Positions 49,352-64,000 of a stretch of 64,000 nucleotides of DNA are shown here, one piece after another; positions within the stretch are counted from its first letter, which is position 1; each line of letters opens with the position of its first letter. Source of the DNA: an uncultured Candidatus Binatia bacterium (GTDB lineage: Bacteria; Desulfobacterota; Binatia; Bin18); NCBI GenBank assembly GCA_965214605.1, contig OZ243961.1:2656001-2720000 (forward strand). The letters run 5' to 3'. A model generated the notes under the pieces. The model ran no database searches, was not told the DNA's origin, and saw only the letters and a program-made list of their open reading frames with translations. A program made the translations under genes and the position numbers.

Positions 49352-49643
49352 TTGACAATATACTTTTTATTTGCCATATTAAGTCTTCGAAAAGACTGGG
49401 AACAGAAAGTCTTTACAATGCCTCTTGTGAGCGGTATGAAAGATTGCCTCAAACAAAGTCTTCCGACCTGTTTTATTCCAAGGAGAGAAAAACTATCTGA
49501 CCCTGGATATTGGGACAAGGCCGGTAAAAATACTCGAAATACAGAAGGAACGCACACTGAGGGCGGCCACGGCCGTGCAGGCAAAAAAACACTAGCATGG
49601 CGGTGTCACTGTGGATGAGGGTGTGATGGTGAGAGAGGGATGG

Positions 49644-50231
49644 ATGACGGATACGCCGAGGACAGTGGCGCTGGCGTGTATGGCCCTCGGCATGGGCGCG
49701 TGTACAGCCCACGCCCCCCTATCCACCGCATCTCCTGCTGCGTCCGCCTCTTCCGTTCAAGCGGATACAAGAGGCCGCCTCCGGATACAGGAAGTGCGTC
49801 TGGTCAAGACAGCCCGGCAGCGCGGTGTGCGGTTTCAGTTTTCTCAACCGCCTCACGAAATTGATTATTTCCCCCTACGAGACCCGAGCCGGTTGGTGAT
49901 CGATGTCAAAGGACCAGTTGTGGTCCTCCCGCAGGTCTATAATACGCTTGATCCACTAGTTTCGGCAGTACGGATCAGCAGCTACCAGGGCAGAATGCGG
50001 CTCGTGATCGATATGGAGAGCGAGAAGGTCCCGCCATTTTCGATTGATCAGCAGGAGAGCGTGCTGATCGTCTATATCGGCTATGAACAGGACGGGGATG
50101 TTTCTGCCGTGACGAACGCTCGGGGTCGGACGGCGCATGAGATAAGGAGAACAACGGTATTGGCTGGGACACTCGGAGGCTTGAGTGTCAGTGGTAATGT
50201 AGGGCGGTGGAGTGGTGGAAGCGAGGGGTAA
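49644..50231 (+). CDS. AMIN-domain lipoprotein, probable truncated pilQ remnant
   Basis: Lipobox MGAC; LRDPSRLVIDV..VRIS...RLVID; no secretin domain; sits directly before aroK-aroB. Confidence 0.65.
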   Translation: MTDTPRTVALACMALGMGACTAHAPLSTASPAASASSVQADTRGRLRIQEVRLVKTARQRGVRFQFSQPPHEIDYFPLRDPSRLVIDVKGPVVVLPQVYNTLDPLVSAVRISSYQGRMRLVIDMESEKVPPFSIDQQESVLIVYIGYEQDGDVSAVTNARGRTAHEIRRTTVLAGTLGGLSVSGNVGRWSGGSEG

Positions 50232-50256
50232 TACGCTTCTTGACTTCGAGCCTCCA

Positions 50257-50417
50257 AGTGTCTCTGTCAATGTGGTGGTTTGGATGGTTGCGGTAGCGGA
50301 AAAACGATGGAGTGTCTCTGTTTAAGGTGGTGTGAATGGTTGCGGGTAGCGGAGGAACAACGGAGTATCTCTATTGATGTGGTGGCGTGGATGGTTGCGG
50401 TAGCGGAAAAACGACAG
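50257..50417 (+). repeat. Three degenerate ~54-bp tandem repeats
   Basis: AGTRTCTCT...GTGGT...ATGGTTGCGG(G)TAGCGGA..AAC at about 50257, 50311, 50364. Confidence 0.85.
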
Positions 50418-50598
50418 AGATTAAGATAGGGGTGGGGAGGGGGAATTTTCCCCCTGTTCCTTGATTTCCCCCCACTCCTATCAAAAAATCTTCCTTCAGG
50501 CAAGGCCCTAGCCTAGGTGCGCCCGCTCAAGAGGAAAAACACCGGGAGAAGGCTGGAACAGACCCCAGGGCGCTTCCCTGACCTGCTGCTCTGTATCT

Positions 50599-51117
50599 AT
50601 GCCAGCTAATATCATACTTACCGGCTTCATGGGGACTGGCAAAACCGAGGTCGGCAGGCAGCTGGCCAGGCAGCTGGGGTGGCTGTTTGTCGATACAGAC
50701 CTCGTTATCGAACAAGTATCCAATACCTCTATTCGACAGCTCTTTGCGGAAAAAGGAGAAGTCTATTTCCGTGAGCAAGAACGGCGGGTAATCGCCTGGG
50801 CGTGCCAACACCAGCGACATGTTATTGCCACTGGGGGCGGAGCGATTGTTGACCCGGTCAACGCCCAACGGCTCAAAAATAGCGGTCTGCTCGTGTGTTT
50901 GACCGCGACTCCTGAGGTTATTTTCTCTCGGGTACGGAGCAATACCGACCGTCCGCTCCTCCAGACCGAAGATCCACTGGCAACAATTCGGATCCTGATG
51001 GCAAGTCGGGATGGCGCCTATGCCAGGGCACAGATCACTATTGACACCTCGCAGCAGAGTGTGGAACAGGTTGTTGCAACAGTGCTGGACGCGTATCGCG
51101 ACTACGCCCGAGCCTAG
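50599..51117 (+). CDS. aroK: Shikimate kinase
   Basis: GFMGTGKT, DTD, GE.YFRE.E, TGGG, RPLL. Confidence 0.97.
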   Translation: MPANIILTGFMGTGKTEVGRQLARQLGWLFVDTDLVIEQVSNTSIRQLFAEKGEVYFREQERRVIAWACQHQRHVIATGGGAIVDPVNAQRLKNSGLLVCLTATPEVIFSRVRSNTDRPLLQTEDPLATIRILMASRDGAYARAQITIDTSQQSVEQVVATVLDAYRDYARA

Positions 51118-51153
51118 GAGAAGAAGACAGGACGGTCGTCCGTCCCTGTGCCG

Positions 51154-52251
51154 ATGGAGAGCATCACCGTTCATCTTGGCCAGCGTTCCTACCCGATCAT
51201 GATTGGGGCTGGAGTGCTGGCCCATCTTGGCCCACTGTTGGACGAGCAGGGCCTGACCGCCAAGCGCGTTGCGGTGGTGACCGATAGCAATGTCGCAGCG
51301 TATTACCGCGAGCCACTGCTGCATAGCCTGACCGGGGCGGGCTATGAGCCGTGGGTGATCGTGCTGCCGCCCGGTGAACAGCACAAAGATCTGGCGACCC
51401 TCTCCTTGGTGTACGACAAGCTGATTGAAGGACGGATCGAACGCCGTTGTCCGCTGATCGCTTTAGGCGGAGGGGTGATCGGTGACCTGACCGGATTTGC
51501 TGCCGCCACGTTTCAGCGCGGCGTCCCCTTTATTCAGGTGCCGACAACGCTGTTAGCCCAGATTGACGCCAGCGTGGGGGGGAAAACCGCGGTCAACCAT
51601 CCGGCCGGGAAAAATTTGATTGGGGCTTTCTATCAGCCGCGTTTGGTCCTCATTGATGTTGACACGCTCAAAACCCTGCCCCAACACGAGTTTGTGGCTG
51701 GGGTTGCGGAGGTGATCAAGTATGGGGCGATTCTGAGTCCAGACTTGTTCGTCCTCTTAGAGGAGCAGCTCGACCGCCTGCTCCACCTAGAGCCTGCGGT
51801 GTTGACCTCAATCATCCAGACCTGCTGTCAGCTCAAGGCGCAGGTGGTCGAAGCGGACGAGCAAGAAACAGATTTCCGGGCAATTCTCAACTTTGGGCAT
51901 ACGCTCGGCCACGCCGTCGAGAGTGCGACCGGGTATGGGCGGTTCTTGCACGGCGAGGCGGTTGCCATAGGTATGGCGTTTGCCGCCAAGCTGTCGCTCC
52001 AACGTGGCCTGTGTGAAGCGGCCACCCGTGACCGTCTCGTGCGCTTGATCAAACGGGCTGGTTTGCCGAGCGATATCCCGCCGGATATCGCTCAAGAGCA
52101 CCTGCATGCAGGTATCGGGGCGGACAAGAAGGTCTCGGCCGGCAAGGTCAAATTCGTGTGTCTTGAACAGCTCGGCAAAACTCGCTTTGAGTCGTTGAGC
52201 GCTACCGAAATTGTCCGTCATGTGTCCCATCCCCGCCTGTCCAGCCCGTGA
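51154..52251 (+). CDS. aroB: 3-dehydroquinate synthase
   Basis: GGGVIGD, PTTLLAQIDASVGGKT, LNFGHTLGHA, HGEAV. Confidence 0.98.
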   Translation: MESITVHLGQRSYPIMIGAGVLAHLGPLLDEQGLTAKRVAVVTDSNVAAYYREPLLHSLTGAGYEPWVIVLPPGEQHKDLATLSLVYDKLIEGRIERRCPLIALGGGVIGDLTGFAAATFQRGVPFIQVPTTLLAQIDASVGGKTAVNHPAGKNLIGAFYQPRLVLIDVDTLKTLPQHEFVAGVAEVIKYGAILSPDLFVLLEEQLDRLLHLEPAVLTSIIQTCCQLKAQVVEADEQETDFRAILNFGHTLGHAVESATGYGRFLHGEAVAIGMAFAAKLSLQRGLCEAATRDRLVRLIKRAGLPSDIPPDIAQEHLHAGIGADKKVSAGKVKFVCLEQLGKTRFESLSATEIVRHVSHPRLSSP

Positions 52252-52333: not shown

Positions 52334-53077
52334 ATGGATTTCTTGAAGCACGCAGCGGTTTATCAGATAGGTCTTGCCCTCATGCTTTCGGGGTGCTCGT
52401 CGATGAGTGCCGCCACGGACACGAGGTCGAGTTCGAATGTGAGCCCTGGACCGCCCCCTTCCTCGGCCCAAACCCAACCGCCCGCTATCACCCAACCGGA
52501 ACTTCAGGTTGACCTCCAGGACGCTCCACCGCTGACCCGAGGAGAGAAAGTCAAGCGCATGGACCGAGCGCTCTCCCGTTCGCTCAATAAGTTTGATGCC
52601 CGCCGGAATGTCGCAGATCAGGGCGGCGGGCCTTCTTCTGCCACGGCCGGGAACGCGCAGGATGGTGTGGTCGATAAGGCCGCGGGGTCCGGTGACGGCG
52701 CGTTTCCCGAGGCTGGGGTGGGCGGGTCAATCGCCTCTTCCGACATATCGGGAACCGAGGTGACGTCGCAAGTTCCGGGTGGTCCAGCTGCGGGCTCAAC
52801 ACCGATCACCGACGTGACAGGGCTAGACCAGGCCTTGGGCATCCCGCCGCCCTTTGGCGGGACGGAGACGCCGGACAGGACCTCCACACAGATACTGCGT
52901 GGACGGACGCCGGTTCTTGGTAGTGGGAAGCTGCCGGAAGACATTCCTAGTGCCGACAACGACAGCGTCCTTGAGGCACAGATCCGTGCAGCGGCGATGC
53001 AGGAAAAAGATCCGCACCTGCGGGAACGCCTGTGGAACGAATATCGTCGATACAAGGGTCTCCCCACAAAAGAATAG
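52334..53077 (+). CDS. Pro/Gly-rich lipoprotein with helical C-terminus
   Basis: Lipobox LSGC; low-complexity middle; ends PEDIPSADNDSVLEAQIRAAAMQEKDPHLRERLWNEYRRYKG. Confidence 0.7.
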   Translation: MDFLKHAAVYQIGLALMLSGCSSMSAATDTRSSSNVSPGPPPSSAQTQPPAITQPELQVDLQDAPPLTRGEKVKRMDRALSRSLNKFDARRNVADQGGGPSSATAGNAQDGVVDKAAGSGDGAFPEAGVGGSIASSDISGTEVTSQVPGGPAAGSTPITDVTGLDQALGIPPPFGGTETPDRTSTQILRGRTPVLGSGKLPEDIPSADNDSVLEAQIRAAAMQEKDPHLRERLWNEYRRYKGLPTKE

Positions 53078-53097
53078 GCGGCGTACTGAGGGACCGA

Positions 53098-54306
53098 ATG
53101 GAGCTCGTAAAGAAGCTTGTCGTACACCTAGTGTGTGTTGCACTCGCCCTGTCAGGCTGCGCCGCAAACCCGGGATTGAGGTCGGGCCAGAACGTCGGAT
53201 CGCCCTCCTCCACCCTGGCTAACGTGCCCACGCCGGTGGATAAACCCAGACTGGACATTATCATTCCGGTATTTGATCCTGGGCTAGTGCAGGGCACCGT
53301 CGTTGACGGCGTGTGGCCGGAACTGCGCCGGGCCGAGGCCAATCGCTTTGCCCACAAGCTGAAGCTGGCCCTTGAAGAAAGCGGCGTCTTTGGGGCCGTC
53401 CGAGTCACCCCCGACGCGACCGCGACCGGTGACCTGTACGTGATGGGCAAGATTAAGGAATCGACCGGTGAGAGGATCGCAATCGACCTGCAGGTGCGAG
53501 ATATTGCCGGCACCCACTGGTTTAGCCAGTCCTTTGACCATGCAGTGGACAACAGTTTCCATAAAAATATCCGCAACCAGGGCAAAGACCCTTACGATCC
53601 AGTATTCAGGAGTGCCGCCCAGTATCTCGTTGAACAGCTCAAGCAGCGGCAGACCGCCTCCCTAGAACAGCTCAGAATGCTGACCGACCTCCGCTTTGGC
53701 GTGAGTCTGACCGAGGAAGCCTTCTCTGAGCATCTCGAACGAAAAGGCGACCGGTTTGTTCTCGCCAGTTATCCGAGCCGTGATGATCCCATGCTCCTGA
53801 GAACCAGGGCCATCCGCGTTCGCGATCAGCTTTTTATTGACGATCTGCAGGACCACTACCGGGTGTTCAACGATAAAATGAACGCCAGTTATCTGATCTG
53901 GCAGGAACAGAGCCTAGCCGAGGTCGAGGCCGAGAGAAAGACTAAGCGGAAAGCCCTCACCCAGGGGATTGCCGGCGCGCTGCTGCTCGGGCTTGGCGTT
54001 GCGGGTATCGCCATGGCTCCCCATGGTAACCTCGGCTCCGTGGCGACAACCGCCGGCTTGGCCAGTGGCGTCGCCGGGGCGGTCATGCTGGGGAAGAGCT
54101 TTCAGACCAGCAAAGAAGCCAAGGTCCACCGCGACGCGCTCAACGAGCTTGGCGAGTCCATTGATGTTGAACTTGCCCCTCAGGTCGTCGCATTTGAGAA
54201 AGACACCCAGAAACTGACCGGGACGGCCAAAGAACAGTTCGGGCAGTGGCGCGCCTTTCTCAAGAAAATCTACGAACAAGAGCGCACGCCGGAGGTGGGA
54301 CTCTAA
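53098..54306 (+). CDS. Hypothetical lipoprotein
   Basis: Lipobox LSGC; Gly-zipper-like hydrophobic hairpin near C-terminus; in operon. Confidence 0.75.
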   Translation: MELVKKLVVHLVCVALALSGCAANPGLRSGQNVGSPSSTLANVPTPVDKPRLDIIIPVFDPGLVQGTVVDGVWPELRRAEANRFAHKLKLALEESGVFGAVRVTPDATATGDLYVMGKIKESTGERIAIDLQVRDIAGTHWFSQSFDHAVDNSFHKNIRNQGKDPYDPVFRSAAQYLVEQLKQRQTASLEQLRMLTDLRFGVSLTEEAFSEHLERKGDRFVLASYPSRDDPMLLRTRAIRVRDQLFIDDLQDHYRVFNDKMNASYLIWQEQSLAEVEAERKTKRKALTQGIAGALLLGLGVAGIAMAPHGNLGSVATTAGLASGVAGAVMLGKSFQTSKEAKVHRDALNELGESIDVELAPQVVAFEKDTQKLTGTAKEQFGQWRAFLKKIYEQERTPEVGL

Positions 54307-54372
54307 CAAGGTGAACGATGATGACTCCCTCATCAAGAAGAGACCATCGTTCACCTTGCCCGGAGTACAGGA

Positions 54373-55848
54373 ATGCTGGATGAGCGGCTCAAAGGCGCGA
54401 GTCGGCAAGCGTGGAACAGACGGCTCAAGGGAGCCGCGATAGGAGTCATCGGAATATCAGGCCTTGGGCTGTTGTGGTTCGCGGAAGAAGGGTTTATGAA
54501 CCATGAGCCGTCGGGCAGGATCGACCTGTTTGCCCCCGATGTTTCGAGCAACACGTCTGAAATTCTCGGTGTGCTCCCCGATCCGGCAAGCAGTCCTCAG
54601 CTCGGGTTGCCACTCGACAGAGATCCCCGGGAACGCTTTAAGGAGGCCTTGAGCGAGTATCTCCGCGAGGTCGAACCGCTTATCTCTAGCCAGGCATTTG
54701 CACGCTGGGACGCGGTCGCCCAGCGCGATATAACAGCGATGAAGGAAGCCGCGTTGCGGGCCTTCGGCGAGGGAAGCCACGCCGACGCGCTCCTCCGGCT
54801 CGAAGCGCTGCTTGAAAAGGCGCGGGAGGCCGTGCGGCAACGTGAAGCGGCTTTCACGGCTGCACTTTCGGCTGCGGACGCCAGCCTCGGACAAGACAAC
54901 TACCATGACGCCAGTCTTCATGTCACCGAAGCTTTGCGCATCAAGCCGGAATCACCGGAGGCCCTCCGCCTGCACGCTAGGATCGAGCAATTACCAGACA
55001 TTTTGGTCCACTTAGAGGCGGCCCGGATAGCTGGGCTTGAGAACAATCCGCAGGCCGAACTGCAGTCCCTTGAAGAAGTCCTCCGGCGAGATCCAACCCG
55101 CTCGGCTGTCCGTACTCGTATGACTGCCCTGAGAACAGGCATTCAGGAGGAGCGCTACAGCCGTCATATCGCACGTGGGCTCGCCGCTCTAGAGAAGAGC
55201 GACCTTGCGAGTGCCCAGGCACAGCTCAACAAAGCGCGTCACTTGTTTCCGAAGCGGGCGGAAACCACCCTATTGGCCGGACAGGTGTTCGACCTCAATC
55301 AAGCGCTGCAGGTCGAACGTCTGCTCAACAGAGCGGGCACCGCCGTGGAGGCGGACGACTGGCCCTCAGCGCTTGACGCCTACCGGCAGGTGGAGGCTAT
55401 CCGGCCCGGAAACGCCTCGGCTGTCCAGGGCCGGCAGACTGCCGAGCGCCTCCTTGCCCTGCTCAGCACCGTCCAGACCCATCTCGGTGCTCCTCATCGG
55501 CTGTCGTCGCCAAACGTTGCGGCCCAGGCACAAGAGCTGATTGATCAGAGTAGGGAAGCCGGGCGTCTCAGCCCGCAATTAGCCGCCCGGGCTTTAGAAC
55601 TTCAACGGGCACTTGAGAGCTACTCCAGACAGGTCCCAGTCCGTATTGTTTCTGACGGAAAGACAAAAATATCGGTCAGGGGGGTCGGTCGGGTCGGGGC
55701 TGTCGTCTCGAAGCTTATCCATCTCAAGCCGGGCGCGTATAAATTCGAGGGCAGTCGGAGCGGGTATAAATCGGAAATCGTACAGGTTCAGGTCCCACCG
55801 GACGCGTTTGATGTTCGAGTTGAAATTGTTTGCGATGAACCGATTTGA
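54373..55848 (+). CDS. Membrane-anchored TPR-like helical protein with C-terminal PEGA-like domain
   Basis: N-terminal TM, helical repeats, SDGKT..LKPGAY...R.GY. Confidence 0.7.
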   Translation: MLDERLKGASRQAWNRRLKGAAIGVIGISGLGLLWFAEEGFMNHEPSGRIDLFAPDVSSNTSEILGVLPDPASSPQLGLPLDRDPRERFKEALSEYLREVEPLISSQAFARWDAVAQRDITAMKEAALRAFGEGSHADALLRLEALLEKAREAVRQREAAFTAALSAADASLGQDNYHDASLHVTEALRIKPESPEALRLHARIEQLPDILVHLEAARIAGLENNPQAELQSLEEVLRRDPTRSAVRTRMTALRTGIQEERYSRHIARGLAALEKSDLASAQAQLNKARHLFPKRAETTLLAGQVFDLNQALQVERLLNRAGTAVEADDWPSALDAYRQVEAIRPGNASAVQGRQTAERLLALLSTVQTHLGAPHRLSSPNVAAQAQELIDQSREAGRLSPQLAARALELQRALESYSRQVPVRIVSDGKTKISVRGVGRVGAVVSKLIHLKPGAYKFEGSRSGYKSEIVQVQVPPDAFDVRVEIVCDEPI

Positions 55849-57865
55849 GCAACGTATTAAAAGTGCCCGACAATACCAACGCAGCCGTTACGGGATCATT
55901 GCACTTGCTCTGGCGTGCGGCATGCTGATTGTCGCGCTCACTGTTGTCTATGCGACCGGAACGTCCGTCAAGATCGCACCGGCGGACGCGGCCCAGACCG
56001 GCTCCGTTAACGTTGAGGACGGCATTGCGGTGGCCGTCTCAGGCGTGGTCTACGCCTTCAGTTCGAAGCCTGTGGTGGCTGTGAGCGCCCCTGGCTTTCG
56101 AACCGCCAACCGCCAGATTCAGCCCCATGAACGGGGCGGTGTGATCAGCGTTACCCTCCAGGAGCTACCCGGCCGCTTGATTGCTTCGAGCAGTCCGGCA
56201 GACGACGCTACCCGATGGTCTCTGAACGCCAACCAAGTGGCGACAAGTGCCCAATTTGAACGCGAACTCCTGCCGGGCGAATACCGGATTGGCGTCGATC
56301 ATCCCTACTATCAGACTACCGAGCAGCGTATCACTCTTGGCCGCGGCGAAGAACTCAAGCTCGACATTCCCCTCCAGGAAGTCGAGGGCGAGCTCTTTAT
56401 TCAGTCCTTGCCGACCGGAGCCTCGGTCACCCTCAACGACGTGCAGGCCGGGACAACGCCGTTCCGCCGCCGCCTAGCCGGCGGCAGGTATCAGATCGCC
56501 GTGTCGCTCGACGGGTATGCGCAGGTCTTGGAAAGCGTTGAGGTGACCAACGCCGCGGCGTCGGTCGAACGCTCCTATCGTCTTCGGCGGCCAACCGCGA
56601 CCTTGACCTTTGAGGTCAGTCCGCCGGGCGGGAATCTTCTTGTCAATGGGAAAAGGGTAAACCCTGCTCAGAGCTACGGCGTGCCGGCCAATACTCAGGT
56701 CGACGTCACCTATCTCAGCCCAGGCTATACCAGACTGACTCGCAAGGTGGTTGGTCAAGCGCGGCAAACCACCCGGGTGCAACTGCACTTACAGCCAGAG
56801 TTCGGTCGGGTAGACATCCGGTCCCGGCCTCAGTCCCACGTGTTCATCAATGGGACGGAAAAAGGGGTGACGCCGCTAAGCCTGAACCTGGCGACCAAAC
56901 CCCAAACACTCTCCCTCAGACGCGCGGGTCACCGGACGATTGAGCGGCGGGTCAAGCCGTCGAGCACTCACACGACGGTGATAGACGAAACCCTCGTGAC
57001 CGAGTTCGCGGCGCGTTTGGCAGAAGCGCCCAAGCAGTATACAAACTCTGCTGGCGTGCAATTAGTCCTGTTTCATCCGACCCGTTTCACCATGGGCGCC
57101 CCACGCCACCAGAAAGGCCAGCGGGCCAATGAGTTTGAGCGTCAGGTGGTCCTCACAAAACCCTTCTATGCGGGAAAATACGAGATCACAAACGCCGAGT
57201 TTCAGAAATTCAAACCGGACCACAACGGTGCTGCCAATTTGCCCGTGACTTCTGTGCACTGGATAGACGCGGGGATGTTTTGTAACTGGCTGAGCCAACA
57301 AGAAGGATTGTCGCCATTTTATCGTATCAAGAACGGAGCACTCCTCGGCATCAACGGGACGGCGGACGGGTATCGATTACTGACGGAAGCCGAATGGGAG
57401 TGGCTGGCGCGCCGAGCGGGGCGTAAAGCCAGCACTATTTTCCCATGGGGGGACGAGTCCATTCTGCCGCGTCAGACGGGGAACGTCGCCGATGAGAGCG
57501 CCCAGGGAAGCACTCGGTTCTACGTTCCGAATTACGTTGACGGGCATGCCGGCCTAGCTCCAGTCGGGAGTTTTCCAGCCGAGTCGTCCGGCCTTCACGA
57601 TCTGACCGGAAACGTCAGCGAATGGGTCCACGACTATTATACGATTGTGGCTGACCCGACGTCTGGAACCCCGACCGATCCGCTCGGCCCGGCCTTCGGC
57701 CGGTCGCACGTCATCAAGGGATCGAGTTGGCGGTCGGGCTCGCTGACACCCCTGCGCGCGGCGTATAGGGATGGCCTGCGCGAGGGACGTGATGATGTGG
57801 GATTCAGAATAGCCAGATATCTGTACGCACCTGAGGAAACATACACCCACCATGAACAACGATAA
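55835..57865 (+). CDS. PEGA-repeat + FGE-sulfatase (SUMF1) domain protein
   Basis: TM; S.P.GA.V.LN..G.TP repeats; YEITN, YRLLTEAEWE, GLHDLTGNVSEW, GFRIAR. Confidence 0.88.
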   Translation: MNRFEQRIKSARQYQRSRYGIIALALACGMLIVALTVVYATGTSVKIAPADAAQTGSVNVEDGIAVAVSGVVYAFSSKPVVAVSAPGFRTANRQIQPHERGGVISVTLQELPGRLIASSSPADDATRWSLNANQVATSAQFERELLPGEYRIGVDHPYYQTTEQRITLGRGEELKLDIPLQEVEGELFIQSLPTGASVTLNDVQAGTTPFRRRLAGGRYQIAVSLDGYAQVLESVEVTNAAASVERSYRLRRPTATLTFEVSPPGGNLLVNGKRVNPAQSYGVPANTQVDVTYLSPGYTRLTRKVVGQARQTTRVQLHLQPEFGRVDIRSRPQSHVFINGTEKGVTPLSLNLATKPQTLSLRRAGHRTIERRVKPSSTHTTVIDETLVTEFAARLAEAPKQYTNSAGVQLVLFHPTRFTMGAPRHQKGQRANEFERQVVLTKPFYAGKYEITNAEFQKFKPDHNGAANLPVTSVHWIDAGMFCNWLSQQEGLSPFYRIKNGALLGINGTADGYRLLTEAEWEWLARRAGRKASTIFPWGDESILPRQTGNVADESAQGSTRFYVPNYVDGHAGLAPVGSFPAESSGLHDLTGNVSEWVHDYYTIVADPTSGTPTDPLGPAFGRSHVIKGSSWRSGSLTPLRAAYRDGLREGRDDVGFRIARYLYAPEETYTHHEQR

Positions 57866-58031
57866 TCACCCGAAGCGATCATCATCGTTTACTTTGAAGC
57901 CCAGCCGGCTTCTTGTCATCCTGGTTTTGGGGGTGTTGATAGGTGCCGGCTTGCTAGCGGTCGCCGTTGCCCAGTCGAACCGTACGGCGTTCAGTCTCAA
58001 TTCCTCGGCGTCGTTTCCGGTGGATATCTAA
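57852..58031 (+). CDS. Small exported protein ending in FPVDI (59 aa, not in ORF track)
   Basis: MNNDNHPKRSSSFTLKPSRLLVILVLGVLIGAGLLAVAVAQSNRTAFSLNSSASFPVDI; fills the gap and abuts both neighbours. Confidence 0.7.
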   Translation: MNNDNHPKRSSSFTLKPSRLLVILVLGVLIGAGLLAVAVAQSNRTAFSLNSSASFPVDI

Positions 58032-58032
58032 T

Positions 58033-58887
58033 ATGACGAAAACCCTCTCGAATATCCTTGCCCTAGTCGTATCTGTGGTAGCCGTGCACGTGACCTATAT
58101 TGGCTACATCCGGCCGCAGGCGTCGCTGATTCTTGAGGCGTCAAGACAGACTGGCCAATCGGCCCCTCGCCACCTCCTCGTCATCCTCAAGGATTACGAG
58201 CAAGAGATTTGTCTCATCCTCATGCTGTGGGGCATGTTTCTCATCCTCGTCAAATGCCTGACCATCCTGAGAGAGCAGTACCTTTTTTCCGTTGATTTGC
58301 TCGAAGAATCCTCCGAAGAGCCCGATGAGGCAGACGACACCGATCCGGTCGAAGAACCCCTGGGAGAATTCCAGGGGTTGAGCAGCACCCTGAAAACGCT
58401 CGAAGCCTTGCCCCTTGATATCCGCGAAACGCCCCTGGTCAAGACCCTCATGACCAGTCTGCGCCGCTTCCTCATTACCCGGGATGTCCAAAACACGTCT
58501 GACGCTATTGAGTCCAGCGTCGAGGCGCTGGCGATGAAACAGGACGCCGAGAACTCCATGATTCGCTATCTTATCTGGGCGATCCCGTCGATCGGATTTA
58601 TCGGCACAGTGCGCGGTATTGGTCAGGCCCTGTCTCAGGCGGATCAGGCCCTTGCTGGCGACATCGCCGGCATGACCGAGAGTCTTGGCATCGCCTTCAA
58701 TTCTACCTTGGTGGCACTGCTGATCAGCATCGCCCTGATGTTCATGTTGCATCAGCTCCAACGGCTGCAAGATAATCTGGTTGTGGATACACAGGACTAC
58801 TGCGAGGCGTTCCTGCTCAATCGTATTAGCCAAAGTGGTGATGTTGCCCCCCAGATGAGGACATCACCACCGTTGTCGGTAGGTTGA
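58033..58887 (+). CDS. MotA/TolQ/ExbB proton channel family protein
   Basis: IPSIGFIGTVRGIG...LGIAFNSTLVALL. Confidence 0.92.
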   Translation: MTKTLSNILALVVSVVAVHVTYIGYIRPQASLILEASRQTGQSAPRHLLVILKDYEQEICLILMLWGMFLILVKCLTILREQYLFSVDLLEESSEEPDEADDTDPVEEPLGEFQGLSSTLKTLEALPLDIRETPLVKTLMTSLRRFLITRDVQNTSDAIESSVEALAMKQDAENSMIRYLIWAIPSIGFIGTVRGIGQALSQADQALAGDIAGMTESLGIAFNSTLVALLISIALMFMLHQLQRLQDNLVVDTQDYCEAFLLNRISQSGDVAPQMRTSPPLSVG

Positions 58888-59954
58888 AACTGAAACGGCG
58901 CCGTATTACACAGGGCTTCAATATCGCCTTCCTGGACATTATGTCCTGCGGGTTGGGTGCCATTGTGCTCGTGTTTATGCTTGTCAAGGACAACGTGGAG
59001 ACAGCCGCGCCCGAGGCCACCCTGTTAGAGGCTGACCTGAGCCGCCTTGAGCAACTCCACCGGCAACTCCGCCGCACTATAGAGGAAGTCCGCGATCAGA
59101 GCAGTGCCGCGGACAGCCGTATTCAGTCCATCTCCCAGGACCTGTCGCGGCTGCAACAAGAGGCTGACGGGATCCGCGAGGCGGCGGAGACTAAACGAGA
59201 GCGGCTCACGGCCCTCGAAGAGACGATTAAACAAACGAATATTGCCACCAAATCGGACATGGTCGAAATTCCCAAGGCTGGCCAGGAGACTTACCTCATC
59301 GGCCTCAGGGTCGAAGGTCGGAAAATCGGCCTGCTCATTGATACGAGTGCCTCAATGACCGACGAAACCCTTCTGTCAGTCATTCGTCGAAAAAATTCTT
59401 CAGATCTTGAAAGAAAAGCCGGTCCAAAGTGGCGTCGAACAAGGGACATTATCGGCTGGCTGCTGGCCCGCCTGCCGAGTCAGTCGGAAGTCAGTGCCGT
59501 GACCTACAATGACAAGGCCCGACATTTGGGCGGATCACACTGGAAACCGAGCCGCGACCCAAGCAGCCTAGAGGGCATCCTGCGCGATCTCGAGGCGGTT
59601 GTCCCCTCGGGACCGACCAATCTCCAGGTCGGTCTCAAAGCCATGTACGCAATGGGCCCCACCAATCTGTACGTCGTCACCGATGGGCTCCCGACGCAGG
59701 GGAGCGCGGGCTACAAAAGCCTCAATCCGTTTGCCGCCTGTAGCTCACTGTGGGGCCTGTCTAACACGATATCCGGCGATTGCCGGGCCAGACTCTTTCG
59801 GCATACGATTCAAGAGACTTGGCCGACGGACAGCCTGCCGGTCAACGTCATTCTCCTGCCCATTGAGGGCGACCCAGGAGCGGCGGCCGAGTACTGGCTG
59901 TGGACGGCCACCTCGGGCGGTTTACTTATCACTCCTGCGGAGACCTGGCCATGA
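58884..59954 (+). CDS. ExbD/MotB-like Asp-TM + coiled coil + vWA protein
   Basis: AFLDIMSCGLGAIVLVF; MIDAS IDTSASM..T..TDG. Confidence 0.8.
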   Translation: MKLKRRRITQGFNIAFLDIMSCGLGAIVLVFMLVKDNVETAAPEATLLEADLSRLEQLHRQLRRTIEEVRDQSSAADSRIQSISQDLSRLQQEADGIREAAETKRERLTALEETIKQTNIATKSDMVEIPKAGQETYLIGLRVEGRKIGLLIDTSASMTDETLLSVIRRKNSSDLERKAGPKWRRTRDIIGWLLARLPSQSEVSAVTYNDKARHLGGSHWKPSRDPSSLEGILRDLEAVVPSGPTNLQVGLKAMYAMGPTNLYVVTDGLPTQGSAGYKSLNPFAACSSLWGLSNTISGDCRARLFRHTIQETWPTDSLPVNVILLPIEGDPGAAAEYWLWTATSGGLLITPAETWP

Positions 59955-60898
59955 AGCCGGAGCGTCGGTCCTTCGATATTTTTAGCCTCTCGTTTTTGGA
60001 CGTGGTGTCGTGCGGATTCGGGGCGGTAATCCTGCTGGTCCTGATCTCCGATTTTTCGGAAGCAGTCACACCACAGCTCCAAGTCCAGACGGAAACCCTG
60101 CTGAGGGATATTCTGGCCGCCCAGACCGTTGCCGACACCCTGCAATCTGAGCTTGCCCAAAGGCAAGGGGAGGCCGCGGCGCGCGAAACCCTACTGGCAA
60201 AACTCCGGGCAGCAGCTGAGGCGGTGCGCCAGAGTGTCAAAACGAGCACAGACGAGAACAAAACGCTGGACAAAAATCTGGCCGGGCTGACGCTGGTTGA
60301 ACAATCCATAAAACGCGCCACCGTCCAACAGGAGACCGCTGAGGACAGTGATGAGGAGGTCGGCGGTATTCCGGTCGACAGCGATTACGTCGTTTTTATT
60401 GTTGACACGTCTGGAAGCATGCGGCAAATCTGGGGCCGGGTAACACGAGAACTTGAGAATGTTGTGACTATCCATCCTAAGATCAAAGGATTCCAGATTC
60501 TCAACGACAACGGTGCGCATCTTCTCTCAGGCTATGCCGGACGGTGGATTCCCGACACCCCACGACGCCGCCGGAGCGTGATCAGGCTGTTTAGGACATG
60601 GAACAGCACCTCGAACAGCAGCCCTGTCGAAGGACTCCACGTCGCCTTGCAGCGCTATGCCAAGCCGGGCGTTAAGCTGTCGATCTACATTTTTGGCGAC
60701 GACTACACGGGTGGTTCCTACGACCCGGTCATTGAGGCTCTAGCCAGGCTCAACACCAACACCGGAACCGGGGAGCGCCTTGCCAAGGTCCACGCGGTTG
60801 GGTTTGTTTCTCCACATACAACGGACCGTTTTCCCACCCTGATGCGCGAGCTGACTCGTCAGAACGGCGGTACCTTCATCGCCCTGCCGGTCCGGTAA
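59951..60898 (+). CDS. Second ExbD/MotB-like Asp-TM + coiled coil + vWA protein
   Basis: SFLDVVSCGFGAVILLV; VDTSGSM; FGDD; NGGTF. Confidence 0.8.
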   Translation: MKPERRSFDIFSLSFLDVVSCGFGAVILLVLISDFSEAVTPQLQVQTETLLRDILAAQTVADTLQSELAQRQGEAAARETLLAKLRAAAEAVRQSVKTSTDENKTLDKNLAGLTLVEQSIKRATVQQETAEDSDEEVGGIPVDSDYVVFIVDTSGSMRQIWGRVTRELENVVTIHPKIKGFQILNDNGAHLLSGYAGRWIPDTPRRRRSVIRLFRTWNSTSNSSPVEGLHVALQRYAKPGVKLSIYIFGDDYTGGSYDPVIEALARLNTNTGTGERLAKVHAVGFVSPHTTDRFPTLMRELTRQNGGTFIALPVR

Positions 60899-60971: not shown

Positions 60972-63107
60972 CGCCCACTGCGTAACGACAACGAGATCAA
61001 CCCCGATGCGCTAGGCTACATCTTTGAGAAGTACCTCAACCAGAAACAGCTGGGAGTTTATTACACCTAAGGAGGACATCACCGGCTATATCGGCCGCAA
61101 CACCATCATCCCGTTTTTGTTCGACCGGGCAAAAGACGCCTGCGCCATTGCTTTCGAGCCGACCGGCGGGATCTGGCGGCTGCTCACCAACGACCCGGAC
61201 CGCTATTTCTCCGAGGCCGTCCGCCACGGTATCAGCTTATGACCTGCACAAAGGGGAAGCCCTGGTCGAAACACGTCAGCTGCCGCCCGAGATAGCAGTC
61301 GGCCTGAACGATGTCTCAGCCCGCGCTGACTGGAACACGCCGGCCCCGTCCGACTATAGCCTGCCGACCGAGACCTGGCGCGAGCACATCGTTCGCCGCC
61401 GGCGCTACGAGGAAGTCCGGGCCGAGTTAGCTGGCGGCCATCTCACCTCTATCAATGACCTCATTACTTACAACCTGGACATTGAGACATTTGCCCAGGA
61501 TGTGATCATCGGAAGTGAGGGCCCGGAGCTGGTGCGTGCCTTCTGGAAGACCCTGAGCGCCGTCTCTGTCCTCGACCCTACCTGCGGCTCCGGCGCCTTT
61601 CTGTTCGCCGCGCTCAACATCCTAGAGCCGCTGTACAGCGCCTGTCTGGAGGCCATGCGTAGCTTTACGACCTTGATCGCTCGCCGCACTCCCACCACCG
61701 CCCGGAGAAGCTAGGTGACTTTCGCAAGATACTGGCTGAGGTCGAAGCTCACGCCAACGAGCGGTATTTCATTCTCAAGTCCATCATGGTCAACAATTTG
61801 TACGGGGTGGACATCATGGAAGAGGCTGTAGAGATCTGCAAGCTGCGCCTGTTCCTCAAGCTCGTCGCCCAGCTGGACCGCTCCGAGCAGATAGAGCCCC
61901 TGCCCGACATTGATTTCAACGTCCGTGCCGGCAATACCCTGGTCGGCTTTACCTCGCTTCAAGAAATCCAGGATGCTTTTGTCACGACCCGGGATGGTCA
62001 GCGCAGAATGCTCTATCCAGAAGACAAGGCTACCCTCACGCGTATTACAAAAAACGCCGCCCGCGTTGACCGCGCCTTCCGTCAGTTCTACGCCGTGCAG
62101 ACCAAGTCCGGCAGAGACGCCGGCAGGCGTACCGACGCAAAGGAGGCACTGCGGGAACGGTTCGCTGCTCTGCGAGACGAACTGGACAAGCATCTGGGCC
62201 GGGAGTATGGCGTCGCGGTCGAAAACCAACGGGCCTACCGGCACTGGCGGGCCAGCCATCAGCCCTTCCACTGGTTTGTGGAGTTCCACGGCCTTTTGAT
62301 CTCGGCGCCACGAATGTTGCCGCTCATGCGTCTCTTAACAAGTCGCACCTCCATCCATATGAGCAGTTTTGCCGTCCGTCCGGCGAAACTGTTTGTCGGC
62401 GTAGATATGAATTTCTCTATTGTGATCGGTACACTCAAGACAAAGAAGGATGAGACGAGATTTTTACAACGACGTACAACCGATGGAATGAGGTGAATAG
62501 TCTGTTCAGCCTCCTTTCGTATGTTGAATCTGAATGTAACGAGCCGCTTGCCGCTGTTTTCAAGATCGGTTCAGAGATCAGCCGAGCCGTTCTCGACAAG
62601 CTCAAACGCTTCCAGCCGCTCCAACGGTGTCACGCTAAAAGGTCCGCAAGTTCAATCTACTATCACAGTGGGGGGCGTTATTTTCGTAAATGTATGAAAA
62701 GAAAACTGTCCAACGAATATAAAGAACTGCGATTGCAAAAAGAAGCTGCAGATCCCCTTCTTTGCCTTCTGTCGTCGTCACTCTATTATTGGCTTTGGAT
62801 TATGTTTTCCGATTGCTATCATGTGACCCGACCAGATGTTGATATGGTTTACGTTCCTGATTCGTTGATCCTGGACCGCCGGTTTCACACACTGTCGGCC
62901 TCCCTCATAGACGATCTGGAAAAAAATTCAAAAGTCCGCATCCGAACACGGGAGGACGGCAGTAAGCGAAAAGAAGTCAATTATTTTGCTGGAAAATCAA
63001 AACACCTGCTCGACGAAATTGATAGAGGACTAGCAGACCACTACGGACTTACAGCAGAAGAATTGGACTTCATCATCAATTACGACATCAAATACCGCAG
63101 CGCCTAA
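60972..63107 (+). pseudogene. Degraded Type IIG/Eco57I-like restriction-modification adenine methyltransferase
   Basis: EINPDALGYIFEKYLNQKQLGVYYT/KEDIT, VLDPTCGSGAFL, NNLYGVDI, PFHWFVEF spread over several frames; NPPY motif and N-terminus absent. Confidence 0.88.
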
Positions 63108-63113
63108 GCCACA

Positions 63114-63998
63114 TTAGAACCGGACGGCCGCTTCAATGCCCCACACCGGCGGCTCGTTCACCATGCTGGTCAGGTTATTGAAGTCAATGCCGCTGGTGGT
63201 GGAGAGGTCGTTCAGGATGTTGCGGCCAAAGGCGGCGACTTCCAGCTGGCCGCTGGCCGACCGCCAGGCTAGGCGGGCACCGCCCTCAAGCCGGTATTTG
63301 TCGCTGAACTCCCGCGAGTCGTACAGAAAGAAATGAACGCGGCTACGATAGATCCAGTCAGTGGACACAATCAATTCAGAGCCGCCGGCCAGCGACCAGG
63401 CATAGCTGAGGCCTAGGTTGGCGATCCAGCGCGGCGCGTCGGGCAGATCGTTGCCGTTGATCGACACTGTGCCGGGCACGGGACCGGGCGGGTCAAGTAT
63501 GGTGCAACCGGAGCCACAGGGTTGGACAAACAGGGTGGGATCGTCAATATTCGTGTAATTGTAGCTCGCCCCGCCGGTGATACGTAGCCCGCGGCTCAGC
63601 ATCAGTTGCAGGTCGACCTCGACGCCCCGGCCGGTGGTGTGCTCGGCGTTCACTAGGCGGTTGATGTTGCTCGTGCCACTGCCTGCGGTCAACTGCTGGT
63701 CTCGTAGCCAGTAGTGATAGGCGGCTAGGTCCAGATGTAACCGGCGTTGCCAGCCACGCAGCTTCACCCCGGTTTCAACCGAGATAATCCGCTCGGTATC
63801 GGCTACGGTGACCTCGTCGCCAAACAGCAGCCGGCCCTGAATGCTGGGGGCGCGGAAGCTGCTGGCCGCCCGTACATAGGGCTGGACGCCTGGGGCCGCT
63901 TGGTAGCGTAGGCTGGCGTCCCAGCTTGGCACTAGGTCACGCGGGCTGCGACGCAGTGGGGCCAGCGGGCCGCTGCCGATGGGCGACTGTAAGCGCTC
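63114..63998 (-). CDS. TonB-dependent receptor, C-terminal part (runs off window)
   Basis: Frame open to window edge; FRAPS, ETGVK, LPDAP, GRNI, terminal WGIEAAVRF. Confidence 0.9.
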   Translation of the reverse strand, partial: ERLQSPIGSGPLAPLRRSPRDLVPSWDASLRYQAAPGVQPYVRAASSFRAPSIQGRLLFGDEVTVADTERIISVETGVKLRGWQRRLHLDLAAYHYWLRDQQLTAGSGTSNINRLVNAEHTTGRGVEVDLQLMLSRGLRITGGASYNYTNIDDPTLFVQPCGSGCTILDPPGPVPGTVSINGNDLPDAPRWIANLGLSYAWSLAGGSELIVSTDWIYRSRVHFFLYDSREFSDKYRLEGGARLAWRSASGQLEVAAFGRNILNDLSTTSGIDFNNLTSMVNEPPVWGIEAAVRF

Positions 63999-64000
63999 GC

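Follow-up and report, generated by a model that had tools for sequence, protein, structure and literature searches.

Eight open reading frames, all on the + strand, occupy positions 52334 to 60898 of the 64,000-nucleotide stretch of Candidatus Binatia DNA analysed here (the window) and were named A to H as follows:

A, 52334-53077, + strand: 247 aa; predicted exported, largely low-complexity adaptor
B, 53098-54306, + strand: 402 aa; lipoprotein, predicted outer-membrane ring or pore subunit
C, 54373-55848, + strand: 491 aa; membrane helix, TPR-like rod, PEGA/transthyretin-like beta sandwich
D, 55835-57865, + strand: 676 aa; membrane helix, PEGA string, non-catalytic FGE domain
E, 57852-58031, + strand: 59-aa micro-gene; predicted exported peptide
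F, 58033-58887, + strand: 284 aa; MotA/TolQ/ExbB-family channel subunit
G, 58884-59954, + strand: 356 aa, TTG start; transpore helix, coiled coil, vWA head
H, 59951-60898, + strand: 315 aa; paralogue of G with transpore helix, stalk and vWA head

The intergenic gaps from A to H are 20, 66, -14, -14, 1, -4 and -4 nt, in agreement with the co-oriented, mostly overlapping or abutting arrangement reported in a first-pass annotation of this DNA. Promoter and terminator scans gave results at chance level (2 against 2.6 and 9 against 9.0, respectively). The GC content of the genes is 53-62%, compared to 58% for the genome, and a recent island origin of the operon is thus unsupported by composition.

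Conservation and subtypes of the operon

Whether the cluster is a conserved unit was addressed by a gene-neighbourhood search. The eight genes were found in the same order in 53 of the 55 genome loci with enough flanking sequence, which makes their grouping more than chance, and a near-identical order was seen in 16 further stretches. The eight genes are therefore one conserved operon-like unit. It is carried by many bacteria, mostly marine and including cultured strains, and was present in 8 of 41 relatives of the host. Among 250 genomes sampled from the class Gammaproteobacteria, B was found in 19 and H in 20, all 19 B genomes carrying H, and among 201 genomes of the class Alphaproteobacteria both genes were found in the same 8. 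The frequency among the sampled genomes of the two classes is thus about 8% and 4%, and in both samples the ring-candidate lipoprotein B occurred only together with the vWA subunit.

When 670 flanking ORFs were read by eye, no conserved ninth gene, cargo gene or outer-membrane receptor was found among them; their largest clusters were ABC-transporter-like genes common to related Alphaproteobacteria. The TonB-dependent receptor located 2 kb downstream of the operon had no match in 77 loci, and the restriction-modification fragments that directly follow the operon in the window were likewise absent from these loci. In one case (G287) the operon genes are spread over 27 kb; a giant cargo gene was considered for this interval and rejected, as the spread reflects a split operon. 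Covariation between components was analysed over 97 loci (effective number 63); it mainly reflected the split between subtypes and gave no usable contact.

The second subtype (subtype II) adds a Hsp70-like/FHA protein and sometimes a kinase. The interval between F and G exceeds 600 nt in 23 of the 40 metagenome loci holding D and F, and is filled by a protein resembling the Hsp70 nucleotide-binding domain, with a C-terminal FHA domain. In addition, C is fused to an N-terminal Ser/Thr kinase in two of the three subtype II C proteins scanned (loci L146 and L153), the third (L126) being without it. The kinase fusions, as well as the stalk lengths and signal-peptide features given below, were read by eye from the sequences. 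In the subtype found in the window a kinase, an FHA protein or any other cytoplasmic output is missing, and every motor residue is kept.

A predicted ion motor with two vWA subunits

The channel of the MotA/TolQ/ExbB type announced by the first-pass annotation was confirmed by the match of F to Pfam MotA_ExbB (PF01618, E 4.6e-13, over cut-off). F probably crosses the membrane with four helices, its periplasmic loop at residues 27-57 is conserved, and its two pore threonines, Thr192 and Thr225, are present in 97 of 97 homologues and align with the invariant Thr of the five ExbB/TolQ proteins of the host. G starts with FLDIMSCGLGA and H with FLDVVSCGFGA, each within a hydrophobic helix containing Asp18 and Cys22 or Asp17 and Cys21, respectively. 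The Asp is found in 97 of 97 G proteins and in 95 of 97 H proteins, the other two having Ser. The Cys four residues further on is either Cys in both proteins (90 loci) or Ser in both (7 loci), never mixed, which fits a G-H pair although it represents one lineage event.

Coiled-coil-type matches cover approximately residues 36-125 of G, and beyond the stalks both proteins appear to end in vWA heads, as judged from borderline profile scores and motifs. The G head scored 26.9 bits with VWA_2 against a cut-off of 27, and the H head matched weakly (E 0.009 to 0.065), but the two align together (hhalign probability 69.5, E 4e-5) and DxSxS is present in both in 97 of 97 loci. The MIDAS of G is complete (D153, S155, S157, T245 and D267), whereas H has DxSxS at 152-156, a Ser replacing the MIDAS Thr, and D250. 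The earlier description of two paralogues, each with an FLD(I/V)xSCGxGA helix, a coiled coil and a vWA domain, is thus retained, the last being borderline in G and weak in H. Hardly any variation is seen in the pore threonines, the transmembrane aspartates or the two MIDAS motifs, and the distance from the helix Asp to the MIDAS Asp is 135 residues in both G and H.

None of the eight genes had a Pfam match to exbD, tolR or motB, G and H being without PF02472, and the four ExbD matches of the genome all lie outside the operon. The SHLS motif was not found in the G or H helix. The operon is not the housekeeping Ton/Tol motor of the host, whose ExbB/TolQ and ExbD proteins are encoded by other genes. 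F shares with ExbB and TolQ the PF01618 family, the pore P/G/T motifs and both Thr, and G and H share with their partners one essential Asp per central helix. In contrast to the ExbB-ExbD-TonB and TolQ-TolR-TolA systems, the operon lacks an ExbD domain, a linked TonB-dependent receptor, a TolB propeller and Pal, its central subunits G and H extend into a long stalk with vWA heads, and an additional helix and loop are present at the N-terminus of F. The observation that no TonB or TolA is recognisable also held, as no such domain occurs in the eight genes. The flagellar stators MotAB and PomAB differ by their OmpA-like wall-binding domain, which was not found in the operon's proteins, and by the flagellum that they serve, the host genome having no flagellin match.

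The system had been regarded as uncharacterised, which is still true of its function, but its three-gene core is of a type already predicted in print. A TolQ-like motor with paired transpore-helix vWA proteins (TPH-vWA) was proposed in silico by Williams-Jones et al. (Mol Biol Evol 2025, Fig. 4c-d, PMC12204202). As in TPH-vWA, a tolQ-like gene lies directly next to two different genes for membrane-tethered vWA proteins (F, G and H abut), each helix has a conserved Asp, the pore threonines are conserved, exbD, tolR and motB are missing from the cluster, SHLS is absent, and the carriers include Proteobacteria. The operon is thus a real, uncharacterised member of this predicted motor class. No organism named Idiomarina, the seed genus of TPH-vWA, was seen among the best 120 matches per search, most of which were unnamed. 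PEGA, FGE and SUMF1 are not mentioned in the text and one supplementary file of PMC12204202, and for TPH-vWA neither a lipoprotein nor a micro-peptide nor a kinase/Hsp70-FHA subtype appears in its section 8, although the drawing in Fig. 4c may show neighbours. Relative to that core prediction, the fold of B and its likely ring, the selection on E and subtype II are new. MotA/TolQ/ExbB is not mentioned in PMC7159879, on FGS/vWA conflict systems, nor vWA in PMC12505986, and bioRxiv 10.64898/2026.01.22.701106 proved unrelated to the operon. No phenotype for the operon was found in print.

The lipoprotein, scaffold and peptide genes

B has a lipobox (Cys21), as do 47 of its 75 homologues, in which residue +2 is never Asp. 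Its sequence matched no solved structure and only unnamed clusters in the Atlas; TraT was a weak Pfam match (E 0.007), and a scan of 56 members gave no convincing Pfam family. In its structural model (pLDDT 87, pTM 0.83) the N-terminal domain adopts the TolB-N/CsgG/PelC/FlgT fold, with Z 10.4-11.0 to the LPHT-ring chain 8z5n, PelC and the curli complex, followed by TolB-N (Z 9.4), PqiC (Z 8.4) and TraT (Z 6.8); Foldseek ranked 8z5n beside FlgT (3w1e). This match spans only the first ~165 modelled residues, and the C-terminal ~200 were barely covered by the fold search. A long helical hairpin has a Gly-rich tip (approximately residues 287-333) that is hydrophobic across 76 homologues (mean 1.75). 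B resembles PelC, CsgG, FlgT and TraT by its N-domain fold, lipobox and hydrophobic hairpin and is a likely outer-membrane ring lipoprotein. The PelC, CsgG and TraT rings are homo-oligomers; B is a candidate by its fold, and since monomeric TolB-N and LptE have the same fold, the ring is not established.

A has two short conserved motifs (approximately residues 67-87 and 197-244) separated by a Gly/Ser/Pro-rich linker, and no Pfam match. The count of two lipoproteins holds in the window, where both A and B have a lipobox Cys21, but most subtype I relatives of A have a cleavable-type signal peptide and a Cys pair instead. The suggestion that this Pro/Gly-rich protein spans the periplasm in place of TonB is weakened by the missing lipid anchor in most close relatives, and A also has no inner-membrane anchor. 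C and D appear to be better candidates for spanning the periplasm.

The N-terminal membrane helix of C is kept in 95% of 79 homologues. C in the window had no Pfam TPR or PEGA match, but its model (pLDDT 96.5) consists of a TPR-like helical rod and a C-terminal PEGA/transthyretin-like beta sandwich (Z 8.4), fold searches returned generic TPR matches (TM ~0.1-0.2) and distant homologues match TPR. The designation as a TPR/PEGA protein is thus supported by the model and not by a Pfam match of C in the window itself. D has an N-terminal membrane helix in 100% of 88 homologues and no lipobox, followed by a PEGA/carboxypeptidase-regulatory-like string (PEGA in three stretches) and a C-terminal, C-type-lectin-like FGE-sulfatase domain (E 2.5e-34). 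Its KGSSWRSG aligns with the Cys-bearing segment of human FGE, and within this 20-residue stretch a Cys occurs in just 1 of 97 homologues, in line with the non-catalytic assignment in the first-pass annotation. A catalytic formylglycine-generating enzyme was rejected, as the two active-site Cys after the GGS motif are missing. The proposed analogy to GldJ and GldK holds at the level of the fold, but D is anchored in the inner membrane, is not a lipoprotein and scores far below the family cut-offs (77.7 bits against 350 for GldK and 33.1 against 458 for GldJ).

E, noted earlier as a small peptide, has a basic n-region, a hydrophobic core and an A-x-A cleavage-like site, like a signal peptide, and then a short mature peptide ending in a near-invariant FPVDI. 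Across the FPVDI codons of 36 aligned loci the first two positions are invariant and the third is variable, and all three stop codons are used. By this codon pattern E is under protein-level selection for its C-terminal motif, and it is predicted to be an exported peptide ligand of the machine.

Possible function of the machine

The idea of a stator-family motor, with the vWA proteins as equivalents of ExbD/MotB, coupled to a periplasmic or outer-membrane scaffold, gained support from the pore Thr, the helix Asp, the B fold and the published AF3 model of another member, an independent in silico 5:2 assembly of the TPH-vWA architecture (PMC12204202). We consider it a serious possibility, a little short of an even chance, that the operon builds a proton-driven trans-envelope machine in which five F subunits surround G-H and the vWA grips act on the B ring. 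The five F subunits would enclose a G-H heterodimer at its two Asp-bearing helices, and G and H may pair in register, as both have the same 135-residue spacing. G-H would form the moving axle, since no peptidoglycan-binding domain was seen, with the membrane-anchored C and D as struts, and its stalk would bring the two metal-dependent vWA grips to the predicted B ring. The MIDAS sites may hold on to an acidic residue, as they do in CbbO or integrins, most plausibly the penultimate Asp or the C-terminal carboxylate of exported E. The penultimate Asp of E is, however, replaced by Asn in 4 of 97 loci with both DxSxS motifs intact, which counts against the E side chain as the MIDAS ligand; among residues changing together with this Asp, one weak column in B was seen and not counted. 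Ion flow would then be used for pulling on or gating the B ring, and the work might be its opening or the passage of a polypeptide through it, i.e. energised outer-membrane transport.

In GldLM and PorLM a central dimer, not anchored to the wall, reaches across the periplasm with its arm and engages an outer-membrane-associated ring, and GldM is the moving axle in GldLM. The GldLM-GldKN and PorLM-PorKN systems thus offer a works-like analogy, including a non-catalytic FGE fold. In the operon, however, the channel F is of the MotA/ExbB family, D carries PEGA repeats and is anchored in the inner membrane, the ring candidate is B, of another fold, and no translocon gene is linked. To our knowledge, a cellular role has been assigned to only a few types of 5:2 ion motor, namely the flagellar stator, Ton, Tol, Agl, Gld/T9SS and Zorya. 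With the list of all eight genes the role of the operon becomes directly testable: a probable outer-membrane ring and a peptide that can be synthesised are among the parts, and the two Asp and two MIDAS sites can be mutated.

The same motor could instead perform Tol-like envelope mechanics, tethering, constricting or remodelling the outer membrane through the B anchor with no transport, which we regard as unlikely. The TolB-N and PqiC matches of B and the lack of a conserved cargo gene beside the operon are compatible with it, and tensile force at the outer membrane is suggested for TPH-vWA in PMC12204202. However, the patchy spread (8/41, 20/250 and 8/201) is unlike that of a core envelope function, the host keeps conventional ExbB/TolQ and ExbD sets, and Pfam found no Pal/OmpA-type wall-binding domain in the eight proteins. 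A motor for surface motility or adhesion, comparable to Agl-Glt of Myxococcus or GldLM-GldKN of Bacteroidota, has a small chance of being correct. Myxococcus AglR-AglQ-AglS combines one TolQ-like with two different Asp-helix subunits, as the operon does, but the partners in the operon are vWA proteins and not TolR-like, and Glt-like neighbours are not conserved beside it. The FGE fold common to D and GldK/PorK (E ~2e-26), the lack of a flagellin match in the 99.99% complete host genome and the vWA adhesin CglB, which reportedly acts in gliding (PMC9946355), would fit motility. Against it, genes for an adhesin, a track or a beta-barrel are not conserved next to the operon, the inner-membrane-tethered vWA heads would be periplasmic and not surface-exposed, D falls well short of the cut-offs for GldK and GldJ, and the carriers include genomes of 1.8-2.2 Mb as well as Magnetovibrio and Mariprofundus, which we do not know as gliders.

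We give hardly any credence to a Zorya-like anti-phage membrane sensor. F matched ZorA marginally (E 0.001, 16 bits) and restriction-modification fragments lie directly downstream, but the true ZorA encoded elsewhere in the genome scores 531 bits, F is without the long ZorA tail, no OmpA domain or variable effector gene was found, the other genes match PADLOC defence families only through their coiled coil, and the fragments are missing from the 77 loci. A trans-envelope sensor, in which the lectin-like head of D, or B or E, detects a cue in the periplasm or outside the cell, which the motor passes on to a cytoplasmic kinase/FHA/Hsp70-like output, is decidedly unlikely, although the Hsp70-like/FHA protein between F and G, the kinase fused to C and the resemblance of E to a peptide signal would suit it. 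The subtype in the window keeps all motor residues without such an output, and the optional kinase of subtype II reads better as regulation of the machine.

A more specific form of the trans-envelope machine, itself unlikely, is a distinct and widespread ion-driven system for outer-membrane transport, in which the vWA-headed axle takes hold of the E C-terminus by integrin-like metal grips and works it through or against an alpha-helical lipoprotein pore formed by B, with Hsp70-like/FHA and kinase control in one subtype. If true, the AAA+/vWA remodellers, which are driven by ATP, would have a periplasmic counterpart powered by protons.

The eight-gene operon and its distribution

The segment from 52334 to 60898 of the window contains eight open genes on the + strand, named A to H, with intergenic distances of 20, 66, -14, -14, 1, -4 and -4 nt from A to H:

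52334-53077, + strand: A, two short conserved motifs linked by low-complexity sequence
53098-54306, + strand: B, lipoprotein
54373-55848, + strand: C, membrane-anchored accessory protein
55835-57865, + strand: D, PEGA and FGE-sulfatase domains (E about 1e-34 each)
57852-58031, + strand: E, micro-gene
58033-58887, + strand: F, MotA/TolQ/ExbB family match by profile search (E 4.6e-13)
58884-59954, + strand: G, borderline vWA match
59951-60898, + strand: H, weak vWA match

The profile search gave no family over the cut-off for A, B, C or E. All the genes and features described for this segment in the first-pass annotation are present. G and H are paralogues: they match each other within the host genome by tblastn (E 1e-6) and their heads align (hhalign probability 69.5). 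A search of the host genome for a second copy of the cluster found none.

A contig scan using H as the query yielded 77 loci, whose titles name Ca. Binatia, Alpha-, Zeta- and Gammaproteobacteria, Nitrospina, Nitrospirales and Pseudodesulfovibrio; because they were selected for similarity to H and some are close relatives, these loci are not independent. In 55 of them the sequence extends 7.9 kb or more upstream of H (the full-flank set), and the profile search recovered the full eight families in order in 50 of the 55. Three of the others lacked only E, one had six families and one only a fragment of H. E was recovered by motif search in the three E-less loci, so that all eight genes are found in order in 53/55 full-flank loci, and the cluster, which the neighbourhood check proposed with the first-pass annotation upheld as a unit, is real and strictly conserved. 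Interruptions of a gene were seen in single records (D in loci L006 and L060, G in L025, C in L051), and no ninth conserved gene was found among 670 clustered flanking ORFs. The order was also kept in 16 further gammaproteobacterial stretches, bar a split operon in genome G287 (loci L176-L177), where A-E and F-H are separated by about 15 kb, and a moved F in genome G153 (L184), where it is placed after H; in two of the 16, one or two genes were missed by the ORF scan.

Whole-genome searches were made in two samples, each of which contains a centre genome picked as a carrier. Among 250 Gammaproteobacteria-class genomes, with one further genome left unscored and one H/B genome (G082) unpublished, H was detected in 20 and B in 19, and all 19 B genomes carry H; among 201 Alphaproteobacteria-class genomes, H and B were detected in the identical eight. 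These searches show B and the motor occurring together. H was present in 8 of 41 genomes of host relatives, namely the host, six of its seven other congeners and one of three members of one sister genus, and this patchy spread suggests that the operon was acquired by an ancestor of the host genus.

The operon of the window is of the compact subtype (subtype I), without a cytoplasmic regulator. In 23 of the 40 metagenome loci containing D and F, the F-G interval is wide enough for an additional gene, the arrangement of subtype II. The profile of this extra gene (27 members) matched Hsp70 nucleotide-binding domains (best E 3.6e-5) and also FHA domains, Pfam FHA being detected in 10 of the 27 proteins, and C was fused to a Ser/Thr kinase in two of the three subtype II C proteins scanned. 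Both subtypes occur at separate sites in two genomes, G041 (L175 and L058) and G207 (L189 and L190), which suggests that their roles are non-redundant. Cultured, non-pathogenic carriers include Bowmanella denitrificans, in which both subtypes occur, and homologues are present in Magnetovibrio blakemorei MV-1, Thalassomonas viridans and strains of Glaciecola and Microbulbifer.

The predicted motor core F, G and H

Residues were counted in 97 loci with complete D-H, retained from 157 after removal of short, duplicate and broken ones. In F, P185, T192, N223, S224 and T225 are present in all 97, and in an alignment with five ExbB/TolQ proteins of the host genome T192 and T225 fall on invariant Thr positions. 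The first-pass annotation had noted a transmembrane Asp in both vWA subunits, and this holds across the family, Asp18 of G being found in 97/97 loci and Asp17 of H in 95/97, with Ser in the other two. In these two (L156 and L171) the Asp of G is retained, and B was not detected in the interval from A to C; they are possibly single-Asp or degenerating variants.

The DxSxS motif of the MIDAS, the metal site of vWA heads, is intact in both G and H at all 97 loci. The Thr position of G is Thr in 95 and Ser in two, and its MIDAS Asp is present; H has Ser in place of Thr and an invariant Asp250. In both G and H of the window, 135 residues separate the transmembrane Asp from the MIDAS, which would fit a pair in register. 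Four residues beyond the Asp, G and H both have Cys at 90 loci and both have Ser at seven, with no mixed pairs. The Ser/Ser loci (L012, L016, L021, L027, L028, L032 and L040) are all zetaproteobacterial, and since the Ser form is confined to this one lineage the concordance is only a hint of G-H contact. Analysis of covariation between the components had no power.

An in silico study (PMC12204202) has described TolQ-like genes accompanied by a heterologous pair of transpore-helix vWA (TPH-vWA) proteins; its available part presents AF3 5:2 models of the motors and assigns them no function. The present locus shows all four of the sequence-level features that were compared, and by these features the operon is a member of this motor class, which was predicted in 2025. 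The complete eight-gene parts list was not found in print: the full-text literature searched, in which subscription papers are mostly outside coverage, gave no description of the operon, of B, of E or of a phenotype.

Elsewhere, the host genome contains separate ExbB/TolQ genes, four ExbD matches and TonB-dependent receptors, and a search of it for flagellin gave no match. F-G-H as the Ton/Tol motor or the flagellar stator of the host was therefore ruled out.

Probable envelope partners of the motor

A structural model of B built on 148 sequences reached pLDDT 87 and pTM 0.83. The N-domain of B resembles a flagellar LPHT-ring chain (Z 11.0, rmsd 3.1, 132 aligned), PelC (Z 10.7, rmsd 2.1, 107 aligned), a curli complex (Z 10.4, rmsd 3.1, 116 aligned), TolB-N (Z 9.4) and TraT (Z 6.8), and Foldseek concurs with these fold matches. 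The N-domain is followed in the model by a long helical hairpin with a Gly-rich tip, which is hydrophobic across 76 homologues. B is likely to form a ring or pore, a prediction that stays likely at most because monomeric proteins have the same fold. The residue at +2 of a lipoprotein indicates its membrane destination (the Lol rule); of 75 B proteins, 47 show a lipobox pattern, none with Asp at +2, which points to the outer membrane.

E is a genuine gene: variation across the last five codons is confined to third positions (36 aligned of 98 loci), the first two being invariant, and all three stop codons are represented. Its sequence reads as a signal peptide with A-x-A at its end and, beyond that, about 15-20 residues of which the last five are FPVDI; in subtype II, a long low-complexity linker precedes the common C-terminal motif. 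The fibrinogen motif recognised by integrins is comparable, with Asp as the next-to-last residue and a free, hydrophobic C-terminal end, and by this analogy E is the best candidate ligand of the G/H MIDAS sites, although the penultimate Asp of E is replaced by Asn in 4/97 loci, which counts against this role. E could equally be bound by D, C, B or the conserved periplasmic loop of F.

C was modelled as a TPR-like helical rod with a C-terminal transthyretin-like/PEGA sandwich (pLDDT 96.5), and an N-terminal membrane helix was found in 95% of 79 C and 100% of 88 D homologues. The FGE domain of D lacks the catalytic cysteines, in agreement with the non-catalytic assignment made initially, and D scores far under the GldK cut-off. 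A distant second PEGA/FGE-like protein, with 25% identity to D, is encoded outside the operon on the host contig (G000:C1:3221666-3222691). A, read by eye, is a lipoprotein in the host clade and also at several loci of subtype II, whereas most other subtype I loci encode a form with a Cys pair and a conventional signal peptide. This argues against a TonB-like anchored spanner and weakens the suggestion that this Pro/Gly-rich lipoprotein might span the periplasm.

Proposed mechanism and neighbouring genes

Ion flow past the Asp pair within an F pentamer would turn or shift a G-H stalk, whose coiled-coil-like stretch of about 85-90 residues corresponds to roughly 13 nm at the textbook rise. With the membrane-anchored C and D as braces, G-H would be the mobile element, and is more likely to be so because no wall-binding domain was seen. 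Integrin vWA domains grip an acidic residue via their MIDAS, and the G/H sites might do likewise; force would then be passed to B at the outer membrane. A partnership between a vWA protein, CbbO, and an AAA+ motor is described in the available part of a preprint (bioRxiv 10.64898/2026.01.22.701106).

What this force would serve is weighed among five readings. Ranked first, tentatively and at somewhat less than an even chance, is energised transport, or gating, by way of a B ring. Mechanical work on the envelope in the manner of Tol comes second and is rather unlikely; sensing follows as a less probable role, and motility or adhesion is more doubtful still. Phage defence, ranked last, is very improbable.

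Directly after the operon (61024-63107), short + strand frames match pieces of an Eco57I/MmeI-type restriction-modification methyltransferase and look like a decayed gene; such pieces are absent from the 77 related loci. The 3' end of a TonB-dependent receptor gene follows on the - strand (63114-64000), and this receptor is not conserved beside the operon in the 77 loci. Upstream, a lone AMIN-domain gene lies ahead of aroK-aroB (49611-52251), a position often occupied by pilQ, and the aroK-aroB neighbourhood is common only to L001 among the 77 loci. Elsewhere on the host contig, a 1079-aa frame (L094:1-2163; G000:C1 near 765500, - strand) encodes a homologue of ZorA type I that scores 531 bits and has a long, repeated tail, and two adjoining ExbB/TolQ genes, one in a 464-aa frame, are followed by one ExbD gene (G000:C1:1272954-1276277; L090 and L092).
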